This document shows, piece by piece, positions 1 through 53,657 of a DNA stretch of 53,657 bases. The DNA lies in the IMG/VR virus record IMGVR_UViG_3300042922_000451, positions 1 through 53,657 of that record. One strand, 5' to 3'. Both the position numbers and the translations under genes were made by a program. Source of the stretch: a virus (lineage: Duplodnaviria > Caudoviricetes). Each line of letters begins with the position of its first letter. The stretch's first letter is position 1. Under the pieces are notes generated by a model. The model saw only the letters and a list, made by a program, of their open reading frames with translations. It was not told the DNA's origin and did no database searches.

Positions 1-127
1 ATAGGTTCTTTACTGAATAATGTTTTAAATACATATGGTTGAGCAAATTGAGCACCAGTAGCAGTCCATGTATTAATCTTTTTAGTTTTAGCAGCCCATC
101 CATATTTTGCAATGTAAACTGCGTCAT
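1..127. repeat. Terminal direct repeat, copy 1 (circular-assembly overlap)
   Basis: Identical to 53531-53657. 127 bp is a common assembler k-mer, and the repeat lies inside a continuous reading frame. Confidence 0.95.
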
Positions 128-3100
128 TTACCAAACACATTCTGCTATATGTAGCTTCATGCTCAAACTCATATCCATATCTTCTACCAAACTCCATTAC
201 AAAATCTATTATTTCTTGTGTAGCATTTGGTATCTTTATGGAGTCAGTTTTTATATGTGCAACTACAAAACCTCGCTCCTGTACTGCATGTCTCAAGTCT
301 ATCATAAACAAAGCTCCACGTTTAGCAACTATGTTATCTATATTTCTACTATCTCTGAATGGATTATCAAATTTAGCTGAGGTTAATCCATAGACAGAAT
401 TAATTGCAGTTTTTAAAGCATCTGCTAATTCTCCGGAAGTCATTTCACCGTTTAATACTTTTTGTATATATGGAGTCAATACACCATTCAGCATTTTGTT
501 TACTATATCCCATGCTTCATGTTTAATGTTAACTCTACCATCGACTATTTCTTTAAATCGTCTAGTAAATTCAACACCAAATAAAACTTCGCATATTGTG
601 CTATTAGGATGCATAGATGTTGCATCTAATAAAGCCACATCAAAATACATCCCAGGCTGAGCATATACTTCTCCACCTTCACCAACTTCTTCACCTCTAT
701 ACATACTTTTACCATTAGTATATGTATATCCATCGAAATATGGTAAAATGGATTTTTCGTCAAATGGTTTCTCCATCATCTTTGGTTTGGCTTCTTTTAG
801 AAATGCGTAGGTTTCTTCATCCAATTTAGTTACAGGTTTTGATAAATCTCTATAATTAAATTTCGATTGTGGGGACTTATTTTTTCCAAATATTATTCTT
901 GTCGATAGTGTGTTAGTCGTATCATTAACCGTCATACCTGCGATATCTGCTAATATCTGTCTAGCAGTCCAATCACCGGATAAATGATTAAATACTATTT
1001 CAGTTGCCACTACATCGTTAATACAATAATCAGCAACGGTAGTCCATAAGTCTTCTGAAACAGGCTCGTCCCATTTGAGTCCTAGTTCTTGATGATGGAT
1101 TCCTAATTCTATTTCAAATTTTTTTAAACTTTTCTTATTAACAGCAGATGCAAAATCATATACATCAGTATATGACAAATTATAAGCTTCTCCAAACATA
1201 CAATTACTACTGCCATTTATAATTCGTTGACTTAGATTATATAATTGTTCATTATTATAACCAATATAAGCCGCATATAATATATGATTGTCATATCGTC
1301 TACAATTAAATCCAACTAGTTTAAAAGACAGCAATAACTCTATATCTGATGGTTTTGGGTTTATCATCTTAACAGGTGCTTTACCTGCCATTTTCCATAC
1401 TACAACAAATAAGTTAGGAAATACTTCAACATCAAAGAACACTAAATCATCATTATTGTATTCTTCTTTATTAGCACTTATTTCCTCAGATTTTATTTTC
1501 ATTTTGCTAACTAACTTTATACAATAATCAGATTGATTACTACTATTATTAGCAAATGTTAATATAGCAGGTCGCATATCAGATATATCATATTTCAATC
1601 CAGAGTTATATGCATCTTCCAGTATTTTATTTATGAAGTCTATACTTGGTTTTGTTCCTGGATGTATTTCTTTATTCAAGTTTTTCTTAACGAGTTCTCT
1701 TAAACCTTTCTCGCTTTTTACAGCATCAAAATTGACCATCTTTTCTCCTTTCAAAGGTAATCCGGAATTTATAGTGGTGATAGGTATATTAAGACATTTT
1801 GTTAGTTTTCGTCGAAGTGAACTATTACCAGTAAATACTTTAATTTCTATTCCATCGGAATATACTCTACTAAGTTTATTAACGTCACCATCATAAATGT
1901 AATGTAAATGTATTCCAGCTCCGCTTTTACTAAACTCAACATAAGTCGCAGGCCATTTACTAGCAGCTTCTATATTTTTCTCTAATGATTTTTTTCCATT
2001 TTCATCTTTTAGGTCAAAATCCACAACTATATGATTTTTATGATTTTCAGGAAAGTAAATATAATGTATTTGAGTAGTATCTAAATCACATAATTTAGTT
2101 GTAACGTCAGACCAATATTTAGTTGGTTTTTCTGTAGCTGTAGCATATTGTGCAGGATATGAAGCACATATTTCATCGAGTATACTTTCTGTAGATTCTA
2201 AAACTAATGATGATTGATGTTCTTCTTTTTCATTAGATACTACTGTAAATTTATTAATTAGAAAACCTGAATAATAACTTCGTATTTGAGTTCCATTCAC
2301 ACGTGCTATATCTGAGAATACCTGAAAATAGTTTTTAAGTTCTTCTCTAAATTTATGTCTAGGAATTTTATATTCTACCATTGCATCTTCACAATAATTC
2401 TTATACATCTCATAAGCTTGTGATAATGTAACACCATCTTGTTCTTTAAATGAGTAGTAATTAGATTCTACGAAGTTAAAGAATACATCTGTTTGTAATA
2501 TCATATCTAGCGGTCTATACGAGTTATAGTAATTTTTACCCATCTCTCTATACACATCAAGACAATGATATGCAATCGCACCAAGTTCAAAATCAATTTG
2601 AGACATGATCGCTTGATATTTCTTCGGAGGTAGTTTCCTACCAGACGGTTTAACATCTATGAGCCTCCTTATAATACCTGATTTTGCATCGGTAATTTTT
2701 ACAGGTCTATTGGTACCCATAAACAAGAAGCAGTTAACCCTCGCCATATATGAAGGTTTATACTTCTCATTCATTGTCATCTCTTCATGAGAGATGATCG
2801 AATTGAGTTTCGTGTTGTCTTCGATTTTCGACAAGTCGCCATCATGCTGTATTGCAACCAACGGGTTGGATTTAAATACTTCGGTGGCAAAGGCATTCCC
2901 GGATGCAGTGAGAGCTTTTGCTTCAAATGTAGTGTAGTATCCCTCGAATAGTTTTTGGATAATATTAAGAATAGTTGATTTTCCTGCACCAGCTTCTCCA
3001 TAGAGCACGATAAATTTTTGTATATCTTTTGCATCTCCTGACACAATTGATCCAATTGCCCATTCGAGTTTAGCTCTCTCATCCACGTCGTATAAAGTTC

Positions 3101-3536
3101 CAATAAGTTCGTTGAATGCATCTATTTTTCCTCCTTCTAATGGATAATTTAATCTTTTACTAACATAATCTTTCTTCTTAACTTCAGTATTAAGAAATGT
3201 TAACTTCTCATCTAATTGATGAGCATTATCAGAAATGTGACTTATATAATTTCTAAATTCAGCCCACGATTTAGTTGAGAAATCACTCATCATTTTTGTA
3301 ATAACCACCCCATCGGTTCGTTGTATAACTTTTTCTCGATAAGCAATTAAATCAGAATCAACAAGTCGTTGAACATCGTATTCATCAGTAGACCATAATC
3401 CTTTCTCTTCATCCCATATCGCATAGAATGATTTTCCTCGAACCATTAAATCTTTTGAACGCCCAACTTTAAAATCTGGATATATCTCAACGACTGAATT
3501 TTTAACGCTTCTCTCTTTTATTTGATAAAAGTCCAC
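1..3536 (-). CDS. 5' part of a ~1380-aa replicase fusion (SF3-type helicase, AEP primase, 3'-5' exonuclease, family B DNA polymerase); continues across the junction into 52924-53530
   Basis: Not in the ORF track because it runs off the edge. GTG at 3536 gives MDFYQIKERSVK. Motifs read on the minus strand: Walker A GEAGAGKST (~2975-2999), AEP HIVVDFDLKD (~2020) and SKSGAGIHLHY, ExoI FFDVEVFPN (~1433), PolB LLDATSMHP (~626), KTAINSVYG and HIKTDS. Frame spot-checked at four motifs and at the junction, not at every codon. Confidence 0.88.
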   Translation of the reverse strand, partial: MDFYQIKERSVKNSVVEIYPDFKVGRSKDLMVRGKSFYAIWDEEKGLWSTDEYDVQRLVDSDLIAYREKVIQRTDGVVITKMMSDFSTKSWAEFRNYISHISDNAHQLDEKLTFLNTEVKKKDYVSKRLNYPLEGGKIDAFNELIGTLYDVDERAKLEWAIGSIVSGDAKDIQKFIVLYGEAGAGKSTILNIIQKLFEGYYTTFEAKALTASGNAFATEVFKSNPLVAIQHDGDLSKIEDNTKLNSIISHEEMTMNEKYKPSYMARVNCFLFMGTNRPVKITDAKSGIIRRLIDVKPSGRKLPPKKYQAIMSQIDFELGAIAYHCLDVYREMGKNYYNSYRPLDMILQTDVFFNFVESNYYSFKEQDGVTLSQAYEMYKNYCEDAMVEYKIPRHKFREELKNYFQVFSDIARVNGTQIRSYYSGFLINKFTVVSNEKEEHQSSLVLESTESILDEICASYPAQYATATEKPTKYWSDVTTKLCDLDTTQIHYIYFPENHKNHIVVDFDLKDENGKKSLEKNIEAASKWPATYVEFSKSGAGIHLHYIYDGDVNKLSRVYSDGIEIKVFTGNSSLRRKLTKCLNIPITTINSGLPLKGEKMVNFDAVKSEKGLRELVKKNLNKEIHPGTKPSIDFINKILEDAYNSGLKYDISDMRPAILTFANNSSNQSDYCIKLVSKMKIKSEEISANKEEYNNDDLVFFDVEVFPNLFVVVWKMAGKAPVKMINPKPSDIELLLSFKLVGFNCRRYDNHILYAAYIGYNNEQLYNLSQRIINGSSNCMFGEAYNLSYTDVYDFASAVNKKSLKKFEIELGIHHQELGLKWDEPVSEDLWTTVADYCINDVVATEIVFNHLSGDWTARQILADIAGMTVNDTTNTLSTRIIFGKNKSPQSKFNYRDLSKPVTKLDEETYAFLKEAKPKMMEKPFDEKSILPYFDGYTYTNGKSMYRGEEVGEGGEVYAQPGMYFDVALLDATSMHPNSTICEVLFGVEFTRRFKEIVDGRVNIKHEAWDIVNKMLNGVLTPYIQKVLNGEMTSGELADALKTAINSVYGLTSAKFDNPFRDSRNIDNIVAKRGALFMIDLRHAVQERGFVVAHIKTDSIKIPNATQEIIDFVMEFGRRYGYEFEHEATYSRMCLVNDAVYIAKYGWAAKTKKINTWTATGAQFAQPYVFKTLFSKEP

Positions 3537-12928: not shown

Positions 12929-13246
12929 TTATTCACGGTACTTTTTATATAGATTTCTAATTTCATAATCTATATATGCCTGTTTATAGTTAATACTATT
13001 TTTTACTAAATCCATCACAACCATAAAATATTTAATGGCTCTAGTTAGCTCCTCAACACAAGCCCCTTTTTTCAACATATCTTTAATCAAATTAAACGCC
13101 CCACCAATCTTTGCATGGCGCATTTTAATACTTAATTCTGTCATTTCATCATAAGCTGGATAAGAAGCTTTAGGATCAAAGTTTCTAAGCTCCTCATTAT
13201 TGATTTGCATTTTGGTGATTTGTTCCAACACATTATTCTTTACCAT
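12929..13246 (-). CDS. Stand-alone paralog of an internal segment of the putative phage RNA polymerase (105 aa)
   Basis: 42/84 identical, ungapped, to residues 595-678 of 46989-49823; RBS TTGAAAGGAG before MVKNN. Confidence 0.85.
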   Translation of the reverse strand: MVKNNVLEQITKMQINNEELRNFDPKASYPAYDEMTELSIKMRHAKIGGAFNLIKDMLKKGACVEELTRAIKYFMVVMDLVKNSINYKQAYIDYEIRNLYKKYRE

Positions 13247-16223: not shown

Positions 16224-16333
16224 AAAAAAAAGAGCTAGGGCTGACGACCCAACGAAAATCGTCATTAGGGAGTTTCTCTGCTCCCGCCTAGTAGAGTGGA
16301 CTATTGCTCCACCACCTTCGTGTCTTACTACTC
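16224..16333 (-). ncRNA. Candidate structured small RNA C (two three-way junctions)
   Basis: GC-rich island between promoter copy 8 and U8. AGUAG/CUACU closes CAC-GAAG-GUG and GUGGA/UCCAC; CUAGG/CCUAG closes GGGAG/CUCCC and UGACGAU/GUCGUCA. Confidence 0.7.
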
Positions 16334-46988: not shown

Positions 46989-49823
46989 TCAACTCCTTTC
47001 AAATATTTTAGCTATAGTACTTGTAGATACACCTAAAGCATCTGCAATCTCAGCTTGCGTATACCCAGCTTCAACCATCATTTTAGCTTTTTGTTGTTTA
47101 CCATCACTAACACCTTTATTAGTTCTAGGTGTAGCTAATTGTTTAACTTTATCAAGGTCAGTGTTACTAAGTATTTGTGTTAGAATGTTGGTACTAACAG
47201 CTCCAGCTTGTATAGCTTCCCATTCTTTATCAGAGATAGTCACTAATGTTTTTTTAGCATCAACTCTAGTACGAGCTTCTGCCATAGCTTGACCTCTTAT
47301 CTTTTTTAAATCTTCTTTAGTCATATTAGGATTAGCTGATTTTTTCATTGATACTATAGTATTACCTATAATTTGCGCTTGTCTTTCTAAAGGCGCATTC
47401 TTTAAAGCTATGTTCAAACTGGCTTTTAACGAATTAACTTCTGATTCGTATACTTGTTTAGCTGAAGGTGAATAGGGTACATACTGTGTAGTAATAGATG
47501 CTTTTCTAGCTTCATTAGCTAGACTTTTTAATTTATTAGCATGTTGAGCATACACTGTTTCCATAGGGGTACCAGATGATAATTCAAAGGCATCTTGTGC
47601 CTCAGCCATTTTAGTTGACGATATAGTACGGGGTTGTTCTTTTCCTTTCGCATCGATATATGTTTCATTTGTATATGTGTATATTTTTTTACCTGTCTTT
47701 GGATCTATTGTTTCTTTTCTTACGCCAACTCTTTCATCAGAAGACGCTTTTGATATTAATGTAGAAGATCCACTTCGTTCACTACCTTGATATCTTTTCT
47801 TTAATTCAGCAATCCCATTGTCTATATAGGACTGCTTATAATTAAGATTGTGTTTTTCAGAATCGATAACCACCATTGAATGTCTAACAGCTGCGGCTAT
47901 TTCATCATCGTTTGCTCCTTTTATGGTCATGTCGGTTATAAGATTAGATACATCCCCCATTTTCATTTGCTTAGTTCTAGGACTTATTTTAGTCATACCT
48001 TCATATGCTGGGTACGAAATTTTAGGATCAAAATTAGCAAGACCCTTTAATGGAGATGATACTTTTATTTCTCCTTTTGGATTAGGAATTACTAATACTG
48101 TATCGCCGTCAGCATCGGCACCTGATAATGTTTGAAAAGTTTTAGGATGTATTCCGATTGCATCTTTAGCATTTTTAAATAGATTATTTCCAGTTTTATT
48201 TTTATTATTTACAGTAAGTTGAGGTATTTCAAATATACCTCCATGTGGATATCTAATCAAAACTACAGTTTCACCATTTCTATAATTTGGTGCGTATACT
48301 TCATTTTTTTTGATATCTACAATTGGAAGCAATACATGTGCTGCTTGTCGTGGAAGGGCAGCTGCTTTTAGATGAACTGATGATGAATCGCAATCATCAG
48401 CGAAGGAATCAAGTAATCTTTTTTTAACAGCTGGATTAGTTAAGGACATTATCTCATCAAATTCTTCTTTCTTAATATCAAATGCTAACCCTAACTGTTT
48501 TTTAGCTAGTGCTGGAGTTTGTTTGGAAAGCATCTGTGAAGATAATGTTTTAGACCATTTACCCCAATCTCCTTCTTCGTTTACTATATTTAATGATGAT
48601 AGTTTTTTATCACCATTAGAATCTATATAATGTTTTTGCCTGACACTAGCTCCGAATGGATTATCAGGATCTGGTTTTATAGAACCATCACTTACTCCTT
48701 TTTTAATCAAATCATCTTTTTCATCTTTGGATATATTTAATTCTAGAATCGATTTAACTTTAGGATCAGTCATATCTGCAGCCATAGTTTTAAATACTTT
48801 ACTTTTATCTGTTCCTAATTTCTTATTTGTATTATATATCATGTCAACTCCATCAGGCATGTTATCCGCATATATGGCCATACCTTTCATATAATGACGG
48901 TCATCAACGCCTATACGAACTTGTGCATATTTAGCGTTACCTAAAGATATATCATCAACACCTCTTCTTAATTCAACAACTCCATCTTTATCGACTCCAC
49001 CATCGTCGGCATATCTAATCATAACTCTTTTAGAATCAACACTTCTTATTGGTTCTAAACCCAAAACAGACCTTCCACCATCTTCTGAGTAGTCAGTTAT
49101 AAGTTTAACATTATTTTTATTTTTATATACATCAGAAAAGGAATCTTTTATTAAAGATTTTACATCATCCTCACTTATTCCTAATTCTTTAGATATATCA
49201 GATTCGGACATTTTTTTATTAAATAGTTTTATAACTTCAGTTGCTTCTTTTGTTTTCGGTTTAGATAACACCATTACTGTTGTATTTTTCCCTGTTCCTA
49301 ATTGTTCCACTTGAGTATATGTTACTAAATATCCTTCTTCCTCCAACATGGCTATCGATGTTTTTAATTTATTTCTAGGTATTCCAATATGTCTTTCTAC
49401 ACCAATACCAACATCAATATAACCTTTTTTTTCAACATTTTCTTTTAACATATTAGCAATCGTATCAGTTATTTCAGAACGTTCTTTAAGAGCAGGATCT
49501 AATAACGCCCTTACTGATGATTCATTAATTCCCATTCTTTCACCAATAGCAACATTTGAATATCCTTTATCTTTCAGTCTAAGAGCTTCTGCTAAATCAG
49601 CTTTTCTTTGTTCAGCTTTAGCTATAGATTTTTTATTTCTAAGTTGAGATGTTGTCATACCCATACCTTTTGCTATTTCAACTTCACTAATACCTTTTTT
49701 TCTTAAATCATCAACATAGCCTAAAAAACTTTTATTTCTTTGTTCTGGACTATCGCCCGACCCCCATGGATATCTACCAGAGTGACGAGGAGTTCCATAG
49801 TGGAGTATAATGTTATTAGCCAT
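46989..49823 (-). CDS. Putative single-chain two-barrel (DPBB) DNA-dependent RNA polymerase with flanking HTH domains
   Basis: YMKGM, LIRYPH, and LSGADADGDTV (DxDGD at 48102-48116); HTH-like segments GYSNVAIGERMGINESSVR and GYTQAEIADALGVSTSTI. Confidence 0.75.
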   Translation of the reverse strand: MANNIILHYGTPRHSGRYPWGSGDSPEQRNKSFLGYVDDLRKKGISEVEIAKGMGMTTSQLRNKKSIAKAEQRKADLAEALRLKDKGYSNVAIGERMGINESSVRALLDPALKERSEITDTIANMLKENVEKKGYIDVGIGVERHIGIPRNKLKTSIAMLEEEGYLVTYTQVEQLGTGKNTTVMVLSKPKTKEATEVIKLFNKKMSESDISKELGISEDDVKSLIKDSFSDVYKNKNNVKLITDYSEDGGRSVLGLEPIRSVDSKRVMIRYADDGGVDKDGVVELRRGVDDISLGNAKYAQVRIGVDDRHYMKGMAIYADNMPDGVDMIYNTNKKLGTDKSKVFKTMAADMTDPKVKSILELNISKDEKDDLIKKGVSDGSIKPDPDNPFGASVRQKHYIDSNGDKKLSSLNIVNEEGDWGKWSKTLSSQMLSKQTPALAKKQLGLAFDIKKEEFDEIMSLTNPAVKKRLLDSFADDCDSSSVHLKAAALPRQAAHVLLPIVDIKKNEVYAPNYRNGETVVLIRYPHGGIFEIPQLTVNNKNKTGNNLFKNAKDAIGIHPKTFQTLSGADADGDTVLVIPNPKGEIKVSSPLKGLANFDPKISYPAYEGMTKISPRTKQMKMGDVSNLITDMTIKGANDDEIAAAVRHSMVVIDSEKHNLNYKQSYIDNGIAELKKRYQGSERSGSSTLISKASSDERVGVRKETIDPKTGKKIYTYTNETYIDAKGKEQPRTISSTKMAEAQDAFELSSGTPMETVYAQHANKLKSLANEARKASITTQYVPYSPSAKQVYESEVNSLKASLNIALKNAPLERQAQIIGNTIVSMKKSANPNMTKEDLKKIRGQAMAEARTRVDAKKTLVTISDKEWEAIQAGAVSTNILTQILSNTDLDKVKQLATPRTNKGVSDGKQQKAKMMVEAGYTQAEIADALGVSTSTIAKIFERS

Positions 49824-52923: not shown

Positions 52924-53657
52924 CTAAAATGGAGCACAATCGTGCCCTAGTTTACATTCATTTGGACCTGATAGTTTATTATCAATAAAATATTCACAAT
53001 TAAAACAATTCCCATTACAACGGCGGTCCATATATCCATCTATTAATGCTGACATTCTACTGTTAATTGGTTTATCATCGCTAACAAACATTTCGAAATC
53101 ACCATATTTAGATATATCATTTATAGCTCTGTCAACTAATTCATTATAGTATGCTCTTTCTATATCATCCTGTTTATTTAATGTTTTAACCATTTCTGAC
53201 TCGAGCCATCTATATCCTTTACTTCCAGTAGCAGCATAAAATTTACCATCTTTTTCTCTTAATAATTCACCTCCACCTTTTCCAGGTTTAATTGGACAGA
53301 AAGAACCAACTTTACCAACAAAATGATAGTTATGACCTCTATTTATTAATACCCTAAGTTCTACTAGTTTATCATCATTAACATTTGGTAATAATCCTAA
53401 TGAATCTGTATTTTTTCTAATCCATAGATCTAATTCCTTTTCATATCTAGATACATCTTCTAAATCTTCATTCATATCTAAATATAACGCCGATGTTACA
53501 GATTTAGTTTCACACATATCTTCAAACATAATAGGTTCTTTACTGAATAATGTTTTAAATACATATGGTTGAGCAAATTGAGCACCAGTAGCAGTCCATG
53601 TATTAATCTTTTTAGTTTTAGCAGCCCATCCATATTTTGCAATGTAAACTGCGTCAT
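52924..53657 (-). CDS. 3' part of the replicase fusion (PolB C-terminus), continuous with 1-3536
   Basis: Junction reads ...KEPIMFEDMCETK in frame; Cys-rich tail CNGNCFNC...C...HDC. Confidence 0.85.
   Translation of the reverse strand, partial: DAVYIAKYGWAAKTKKINTWTATGAQFAQPYVFKTLFSKEPIMFEDMCETKSVTSALYLDMNEDLEDVSRYEKELDLWIRKNTDSLGLLPNVNDDKLVELRVLINRGHNYHFVGKVGSFCPIKPGKGGGELLREKDGKFYAATGSKGYRWLESEMVKTLNKQDDIERAYYNELVDRAINDISKYGDFEMFVSDDKPINSRMSALIDGYMDRRCNGNCFNCEYFIDNKLSGPNECKLGHDCAPF
53531..53657. repeat. Terminal direct repeat, copy 2
   Basis: Identical to 1-127. Confidence 0.95.

Follow-up and report, generated by a model that had tools for sequence, protein, structure and literature searches.

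Evidence for a new family of structured phage RNAs that follow a promoter-like motif and carry a long-range pseudoknot

The locus and its RNA gene

The viral record IMGVR_UViG_3300042922_000451 (Duplodnaviria; Caudoviricetes), 53,657 bp in length, is a complete phage genome as judged by its direct terminal repeats, and the whole of it is called the window here. Its GC content is ~32% and its genes lie exclusively on the minus strand. We describe a non-coding, GC-enriched element on that strand, at 16337-16224, which we consider with high confidence to be a genuine gene for a structured RNA and to represent a new family. An earlier note, made from the DNA letters alone, had placed a cassette for a ~110-nt phage RNA at this site, and covariation among homologs, a promoter-like motif of its own and a terminal U-run now support a small RNA gene of 114 nt. 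The U8 tract (16231-16224) and the lack of an open reading frame (ORF) led by a ribosome-binding site (RBS), both part of that proposal, are borne out by the sequence and by the list of ORFs. The window copy scores 135.0 bits with model R1 and 109.8 bits with model R2, the latter built mostly from other sequences, and it possesses all elements of the family. Its features are as follows, where the counts of pairs changed on both sides and the percentages of paired cells refer to the alignment A6 described below.

16364-16338, minus: promoter-like motif GCTCGC-N15-TATAAT (TATAAT at 16343-16338), directly upstream of the RNA
16337-16224, minus: RNA gene, 114 nt, from the first base past TATAAT through the end of U8
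16337-16331, minus: 5' strand of helix P0, GAAAGAG, paired with CUCUUUU at 16234-16228; 7/7 pairs changed on both sides, 79.8% of cells paired
16330-16326, minus: 5' strand of helix P1, UAGUA, paired with 16293-16289; 5/5 pairs changed on both sides, 99.6% of cells paired
16325-16313, minus: conserved internal loop AGACACGAAGGUG, in which CACGAA (16322-16317) is the 5' strand of the pseudoknot
16312-16296, minus: hairpin P1b, GUGGA-GCAAUAG-UCCAC; 5/5 pairs changed on both sides, 94.5% of cells paired, loop variable
16293-16289, minus: 3' strand of P1, UACUA, covarying in A6
16288-16286, minus: 5' strand of helix P2, GGC, paired with GCC at 16241-16239; 3/3 pairs changed on both sides, 82.3% of cells paired
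16285-16268, minus: hairpin P2a, GGGAG-CAGAGAAA-CUCCC; 5/5 pairs changed on both sides, 100% of cells paired where present
16264-16242, minus: hairpin P2b, UGACGA-UUUUCGUUGGG-UCGUCA; 7/8 stem pairs changed on both sides, 97.6% of cells paired
16238-16235, minus: unpaired linker CUAG between P2 and P0, CYAG in most relatives
16234-16224, minus: 3' strand of P0, CUCUUUU (P0 part 16234-16228), running into U8; probable transcript end, with a terminator-like site listed
16223-16197, minus: next copy of the promoter motif GCTCGC-N15-TATAAT, immediately after the RNA, predicted to serve a 52-aa membrane-protein ORF (16170-16012)

P0 and U8 together have the GC-containing stem and the U-run of an intrinsic terminator, and a terminator scan lists a terminator-like site at 16253-16234. 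The element is nevertheless more than a plain terminator, because its interior is conserved.

Comparative evidence for the fold

The site had been described as GC-rich and almost fully pairable. The GC enrichment stands, whereas the pairability does not exceed chance: the minimum free energy (MFE) of the single sequence is -36.3 kcal/mol (z -1.05), and 27/200 shuffles fold equally well. We therefore call the structure real because of comparative evidence only. In A6 (61 hits, 55 distinct), an alignment fitted to a covariance model and thus favouring structure, 93.1% of the cells are paired versus 69.7 +/- 0.7% in shuffles, none of which reaches the observed value (0/500); changes on both sides occur in 36/39 pairs, and slid controls are 36-46% paired. 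An earlier set of 41 sequences gave 91.4% versus 63.3%. The covariation check that had been suggested for homologs, carried out on A6 as counts of paired cells against shuffles, thus reveals strong covariation, and the strand of the RNA is fixed by the many U.G pairs.

These counts support a predicted fold in which P0, P1 and P2 meet in a three-way junction. The P1 arm bears the large internal loop and is capped by P1b, the P2 arm bears P2b and, where present, P2a, and a kissing pseudoknot links the distal parts of both arms. This pseudoknot consists of 6 bp and one bulge and joins the internal loop AGACACGAA to the P2b loop UUUUCGUUGG, with CACGAA in the internal loop facing UUCG(U)UG in the P2b loop (bases 16256-16250). 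The P2b stem itself is lengthened by UU/GG wobble pairs, and its pair U1-R11 is UG in 35 sequences, UA in 19 and GC in 1. In A6, 98.5% of the pseudoknot cells are paired and 4/6 pairs show changes on both sides. The compensatory changes are A:U to C:G in locus L306, G:C to U:A in L352 and in Gordonia phage Kerry, G:C to C:G in L335, C:G to U:A in L335 and L375, and A:U to G:C in Rhodococcus phage ReqiPepy6, and they come from members that were collected without fixing the conserved motifs (14/55). Invariant unpaired bases (AGA, KGY, UAA and CYAG) surround the contacts. The only alternative pairing that we saw opposes a CAC/GUG mini-hairpin to the pseudoknot and does not involve P0.

The structure drawn in the earlier note was about half right. 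Three of its hairpins covary in homologs, namely GUGGA/UCCAC (P1b, 16312-16308 with 16300-16296), GGGAG/CUCCC (P2a, 16285-16281 with 16272-16268) and UGACGA/UCGUCA (P2b, 16264-16259 with 16247-16242). The helix AGUAG/CUACU, proposed to close a first domain, was placed out of register, the actual one being UAGUA/UACUA, at which the closest relatives change U to C and A to G; in the helix CUAGG/CCUAG, proposed to close a second, only GGC/GCC (16288-16286 with 16241-16239) is paired and CUAG is unpaired. The small hairpin CAC-GAAG-GUG has to be given up: its outer C-G pairs are invariant, at the middle position 15 of 41 sequences have A-U and 26 have A.C, without covariation, and the partner of its 5' strand is the P2b loop instead. 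As for the two three-way junctions of that drawing, the junction of P0, P1 and P2 is retained, whereas the one formed by P2, P2a and P2b is only optional and the outer helix P0 had been missed. P2a is indeed not present throughout the family, being absent from L141, L145 and a subfamily with a long P1b.

Members of the family and their distribution

A scan with exact 18-mers yielded 23 loci, among which two in viral contigs (L003 and L010) are true homologs; the other 21 have unrelated flanks, 20 of them representing one recurring sequence. Between the window copy and these two homologs, each difference in a helix is compensatory or gives a G.U pair, and P2a is swapped for a different hairpin in register. 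When R1, built from the three sequences, was run on 27 related viral records gathered via the promoter motif, three divergent copies came to light. Two motifs are invariant in these first six members, and a gapped pattern of both retrieved 79 viral loci, R1 confirming 58/74 new ones. The same pattern in bacterial assemblies gave 77 loci, an estimated chance-level number, of which 5 were confirmed by the model, Clostridiales bacterium CCNA10 and Muriventricola aceti being among the confirmed holders. A scan with the promoter pattern, in which the RNA motifs were not fixed, added 8 members in 79 loci. A blastn search with one member gave matches in the unannotated intergenic DNA of phage records, 18 from Gordonia and 12 from Arthrobacter, and R2 located the RNA in Kerry and ReqiPepy6. 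The copy of Arthrobacter phage CastorTray scores only 15.3 bits and was identified by eye.

We define the family by P0, P1, P1b, P2, P2b and the loops AGACACGAA and UUUUCGUUGG, able to pair as a pseudoknot, directly after the promoter motif. Thus delimited, the collected sequences establish a widespread family of uncatalogued phage RNAs with a predicted length of ~90-120 nt. R2 detected no RNA in Lactococcus phage P118, Streptomyces phage Scarif, Arthrobacter phage Mudcat, Caudovirus D_HF4_2 or Microbacterium phage DizzyRudy, and the 80 loci collected around relatives of the thymidylate synthase gene ThyX contained none (0/80). A blastn search of phage records with a 301-nt region matched only a 65-nt AT-rich stretch of RBS and start region in AR9/PBS1-type phages, outside the RNA, which we read as low-complexity similarity.

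The subfamily with a long P1b (L199, L149, L260 and relatives) is devoid of P2a and carries an additional hairpin on its 5' side. Its 25-nt P1b insertion contains a covarying mini-hairpin (AAGU/ACUU versus ACGU/ACGU); a tag-peptide frame that we had considered for this insertion was discarded in favour of the hairpin. Copies of this type occur in the Clostridia genomes CCNA10 and Muriventricola aceti, both of which encode a homolog of the polymerase described next.

The promoter-like motif and the phage RNA polymerase

The motif upstream of the RNA has identical 26-nt copies at 14026-14001 and 13877-13852. Allowing at most 1 mismatch, its generalized form TCGC-N7-ACA-N5-TATAAT has 15 copies in the window, always on the minus strand and between 10161 and 19364, and a reversed-pattern control gives 0. 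Seven isolate phages contain it on the coding strand only (Kerry, 11 copies; CastorTray, 10; Scarif, 12; ReqiPepy6, 16; Mudcat, 7; D_HF4_2, 3; DizzyRudy, 5), with 0 occurrences on their opposite strand or with the reversed pattern, and it is absent from P118 and SPbeta. The carriers are phages of Gordonia, Arthrobacter, Streptomyces, Rhodococcus and Microbacterium as well as an oral siphovirus. A purine-rich start follows the motif, and the whole conserved stretch covers ~26-32 nt. This layout, in which an upstream box and an ACA box precede a TATA-like box next to the purine-rich start, resembles that of the promoters of phage single-subunit polymerases.

A full-consensus promoter had been proposed at this position. 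The proposal is not confirmed: TATAAT is present, but a sigma-70-type scan lists no site at 16343-16338. We regard the sequence as a phage-specific motif. The motif lies upstream of the RNA in 38/55 copies with a loose regular expression and in 25/55 with a strict one, as compared with 136/5000 random windows. Among the 17 copies without a match, 14 have variant motifs recognized by eye and 3 stand behind a T-arm-like hairpin. In 17 of the 38 positive copies, the model begins no more than 1 nt from the end of the hexamer, where P0 or the 5' hairpin starts. That P0 begins and covaries there supports a transcription start right after the hexamer, since with a sigma-70-type start, ~7 nt further downstream, P0 would be largely lost.

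The window also encodes a candidate enzyme for this motif:

46989-49823, minus: homolog of single-chain two-barrel RNA polymerases, 944 aa, with HTH domains at both ends and DADGD at residue 570

The ORF matches phrog_4291 (E = 0, 1237 bits) and has homologs in 250 phage records; a PDB sequence search with the protein returned none at E <= 1. According to a preprint, the protein is a YonO/crAss-like RNA polymerase and the signature of the supercluster of Actinobacteria and Firmicutes phages concerned (10.1101/842583). The homolog in ReqiPepy6 is annotated in its record as similar to a structural protein of Lactococcus phage 1706, and SPbeta has a single-chain polymerase of its own, YonO. We found the motif in 8/9 polymerase-bearing records, across hosts of two phyla; the seven isolate phages with the motif all encode a homolog of the window polymerase, as does P118, which lacks the motif. 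Two of the five bacterial genomes that hold the RNA also hold a polymerase homolog. Because it is kept together with the enzyme across hosts of two phyla, the motif is best explained as the putative promoter of the phage's YonO/crAss-like single-chain RNA polymerase. In work on YonO, the promoter of that enzyme, the prototype of the class, is reported as unknown (PMC5467207).

The motif repeat that flanks the RNA has been described as a 32-bp "boundary" sequence that promotes recombination in cluster AU phages (10.1101/2020.01.10.891226). On this view the RNA would have no function of its own: situated between two copies of a recombination-prone repeat, it would be a complex terminator, an insulator or what is left of a decaying element. 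The mosaic nature of the region and the presence of a second non-coding cassette at 14026-13878 can be cited for it as well. We regard it as very improbable, given that compensatory changes maintain the internal helices and the long-range pseudoknot in phages whose hosts belong to Bacillota and Actinomycetota, and that the bases left unpaired do not vary; no such features would be required of a plain terminator.

Comparison with known RNAs

The site had been said to match no family that could be recognized, and comparison with Rfam 15, the Infernal-type check proposed at the time, agrees: nothing in the window reaches the gathering threshold and nothing covers the RNA at E <= 10, nor does any family cover it in 8 loci at the gathering threshold or in 8 members at E <= 1. 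This comparison includes 6S, the packaging RNA (pRNA), riboswitches and the hammerhead, twister, pistol, hatchet and HDV-like ribozymes. Weak hits to snoZ7 and CRISPR-DR6 near the site lie outside the RNA and are at chance level. Ideas that we dropped are a hammerhead, twister or HDV-like core, mimicry of 5S or of SRP-Alu, and a boxB-like P1b loop. In one related contig, L159, a pistol ribozyme match (13144-13206, 40.1 bits for a gathering score of 34.5) lies ~10 kb from the RNA copy.

The statement that the element is not a tRNA cloverleaf also holds, as ARAGORN finds 0 tRNA or transfer-messenger RNA (tmRNA) genes in the window and RF00005 has no match at the site at E <= 10; in relatives, matches to RF00005 or tRNA are confined to neighbouring true tRNAs. 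A tmRNA was discarded on the ARAGORN result, the apparent stop codons of the P1b loops not being conserved. A link with tRNA biology could take other forms, the RNA either mimicking tRNA, as a decoy or substrate of host enzymes or nucleases that act on tRNAs, or being a processing element, possibly self-cleaving, of polycistronic small-RNA transcripts. Several members adjoin tRNA or tRNA-like cassettes of the same design (L003, CastorTray, ReqiPepy6 and L193), T-arm-like hairpins stand directly upstream in 3/55 copies, CastorTray has an array of three cassettes, and P0 (7 bp) and P1 (5 bp) could conceivably stack as an acceptor/T-stem minihelix. We nevertheless consider this reading quite improbable: ARAGORN finds none, no Rfam tRNA or ribozyme matches 9 members (E <= 1; E <= 10 for the window), and a T-loop, a conserved anticodon loop (the loop of P1b varies) and a CCA or discriminator context are all absent. 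A tRNA on the same strand within ~530 nt is found in 5/53 loci, while 48/53 have none nearby.

The tRNA cassettes of these phages share a design that comprises the motif, a purine-rich leader, the tRNA, a complementary trailer and a U-run (L003 4504-4574, minus strand; L422 907-979). In L003 the tRNA gene is marginal and tRNA-Ile(AAU)-like (Rfam, 30.2 bits), with CCA not encoded, and ReqiPepy6 has a "tRNA-OTHER" 61 nt upstream of its RNA copy. The CastorTray array (L296 2410-2740) consists of three consecutive promoter-RNA cassettes in a 391-nt gap between gp40 and gp41 that is annotated as empty: one for a tRNA-like RNA whose T-arm is canonical, one for a compact variant of the present family and one for a hairpin-rich RNA with a GCAA tetraloop.

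We count the stable RNAs "species 1" and "species 2" of phage T4 among the nearest analogies. These products of the T4 tRNA cluster are reportedly phage-encoded, highly structured RNAs of ~100-140 nt that lie beside or among tRNA genes and are dispensable and accessory. The present family differs from what is described for them in its putative phage-polymerase promoter, its closing helix between the 5' and 3' ends with a U-run, its kissing pseudoknot and its occurrence in siphoviruses of Gram-positive hosts. The pRNA of phi29, likewise phage-encoded and ~120 nt long, is said to contain a three-way junction, to have its ends paired and to form tertiary contacts through its loops. The present RNA resembles it in size, junction, paired 5' and 3' ends and tertiary loop pairing, whereas the Rfam pRNA model does not match it, the window phage uses a TerL-type terminase and the RNA is accessory (8/38 relatives).

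The literature that we searched contains no description of the RNA family or of the motif as a promoter. A survey of IMG/VR for candidate structured RNAs lists 8495 unnamed "DNAVirus_X" candidates (Fremin et al. 2023, PMC10690425), objects of the same kind from the same data source, and our family may be among them; the main text of that work describes neither the present motif nor the pseudoknot nor a link to a polymerase promoter. In SPbeta, an unannotated non-coding RNA downstream of the YonO start site is mentioned by Forrest et al. 2017 (PMC5467207) and, like ours, it directly follows a start site of a single-chain two-barrel phage RNA polymerase. The yonK-yonN gap of SPbeta has no similarity to the RNA, with a best R2 score of 9.5 bits (E 0.086).

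Neighbourhood of the copies and possible modes of action

In 52/55 homologs there is a U-run near the end of the model (-8 to +25 nt), the three exceptions running directly into tRNA-like sequence. The genes immediately downstream differ between members and are mutually unrelated. Clustering of the neighbouring genes reveals synteny, with holin-like genes upstream and a DUF6353-like gene downstream, the latter in 23/47 loci at a median of +398 nt and usually not adjacent.

A rival view is that the RNA is a cis-acting leader whose fold decides between a stop at P0 and the U-run and read-through into the downstream genes, either as an attenuator that senses a ligand or a protein, in the manner of a riboswitch, or as a nascent RNA that, like put, would render the polymerase resistant to the numerous hairpin terminators in this block of genes. 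The put RNA of HK022 is reportedly a cis-acting antiterminator made of two simple stem-loops that act on the host polymerase; like the present RNA, it is a promoter-proximal, structured phage RNA encoded in a region punctuated by terminators. The closed three-way junction, the pseudoknot, the U-run of its own and the frequent status of a separate transcription unit set our RNA apart from it. Three-way junctions with a pseudoknot between a hairpin loop and an internal loop are typical of aptamers, for example of the THF-I riboswitch, and aptamers of that type also resemble our RNA in overall architecture and in the invariant unpaired bases around a tertiary contact; it differs from riboswitches in that no Rfam riboswitch matches and the downstream genes are functionally incoherent. 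A leader would account for an RNA that begins at the promoter and ends in a helix and U-run whose stem needs the whole fold to close, and for the ~60% of members that stand directly before an RBS and an ORF. It would also fit the DUF6353-like gene and, in the window, the terminator (hairpin and U-run) at 16028-16002 on the minus strand, which is followed by four genes through 14309, ThyX and a MazG-like one included, with no promoter motif until 14295.

We judge a leader rather unlikely all the same. The family has a conserved, covarying aptamer-like fold, as riboswitches do, and lacks their constant 5'-UTR position before related genes. At least 11 of 54 copies, that of the window included, have a further promoter within 120 nt downstream by regular expression, and inspection by eye adds more, so that control of read-through would matter little there. 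Three members are apparently co-transcribed behind tRNA-like elements and three run into tRNA-like sequence instead of a U-run, the tRNA genes of the same phages share the layout of promoter, leader-trailer and U-run, and we found no alternative antiterminator pairing.

Action in trans is in our view more likely than the cis models, and we favour, at a probability of about 0.45 for the whole statement, a discrete and stable RNA made from a phage polymerase promoter and acting in trans. The single-chain RNA polymerase of the phage would transcribe the RNA from its phage-specific promoter, starting at the first base or two past the TATAAT-like element, and would release it at the U-run past P0. 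The product would be a discrete, compact and nuclease-resistant molecule, whose two arms the pseudoknot between the P2b loop and the P1 internal loop would lock side by side, and through the invariant unpaired bases (AGA, KGY, UAA and CYAG) it may, as infection proceeds, bind a protein, possibly even a small ligand, and thereby sequester or redirect it. It would thus be an accessory RNA of the "moron" type, comparable to the RNAs of phage tRNA clusters; a core function is excluded by the patchy occurrence of the family. The roles put forward in the earlier note, those of a protein decoy, an antitoxin mimic or an RNAP ligand, are all still candidates, with specific support for none.

Several points weigh against this favoured reading. 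We infer, from DNA, both the promoter role of the motif and its reading by the phage polymerase, and we deduce in the same manner where the transcript starts and ends and how abundant it would be; a search of sequencing runs with the stretch found two DNA runs that carry it, perhaps as its source, and no RNA run among the holders. The ~60% of members in which an RBS and an ORF follow without an intervening promoter have the layout of a 5'-leader regulator, and the clustering of neighbouring genes yields no gene specific to the RNA and no co-occurring partner. The presence of the RNA in only 8 of 38 related records (R2) counts here as well. As to the fold, that of the single window sequence is no better than chance, A6 is biased toward structure by its fitting, and the pseudoknot covariation stems from 6 lineages, with mismatches in L346 (two) and L375 (one). 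The invariance of the motifs is in part an artefact of collection, because ~41 of the 55 sequences were gathered with a pattern that fixed both of them.

Two more specific proposals, that the RNA is a dedicated partner of the YonO/crAss-like polymerase or a free-standing aptamer that soaks up a small molecule, seem to us clearly unlikely. In the former, the promoter-proximal RNA would bind the enzyme in cis or in trans and bring it into a terminator-resistant or otherwise reprogrammed state, and in the latter it would capture, for example, a nucleotide of host immune signalling. Should it prove to be a decoy, a regulator of the polymerase or an aptamer, phage takeover or counter-defence would gain a new RNA-based layer, and a polymerase partner would be the first RNA regulator of a two-barrel single-chain polymerase.

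The family matters as a well-supported group of structured RNAs with a long-range pseudoknot, absent from Rfam and found in phages of two bacterial phyla, whose function can be tested directly because it is present in cultured laboratory systems that are non-pathogenic (phages of Gordonia terrae 3612 and Arthrobacter sp. ATCC 21022). The family also points to the likely promoter of the poorly understood single-chain two-barrel phage RNA polymerases, a motif that had been read only as a recombination "boundary repeat" of cluster AU phages.

Other features of the window

The four genes behind the terminator at 16028-16002 lie on the minus strand in this order:

minus: 62-aa ORF
15765-15142, minus: ThyX
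minus: 131-aa ORF
14710-14309, minus: MazG-like dATP/dGTP diphosphohydrolase, N-domain

Their expression seems to need read-through of the terminator, because they have no promoter motif of their own.

The second non-coding cassette, at 14026-13878 on the minus strand, comprises an identical copy of the promoter, a putative AT-rich RNA of ~115 nt and a U6 tract, after which the next promoter begins. The ends of this RNA can pair (GAAAGAG/CUCUUUC), its MFE is -25.3 kcal/mol (z -2.32, with 3/200 shuffles as good), and an in-frame ORF without an RBS runs through it. No homolog of this cassette was found among the related loci that we had loaded.

Finally, the gene for a large DNA polymerase of the primase-polymerase type (phrog_4210, minus strand) is split over the ends of the record, at 3-3536 and 52924-53529, as expected of a terminally redundant genome opened inside a gene.

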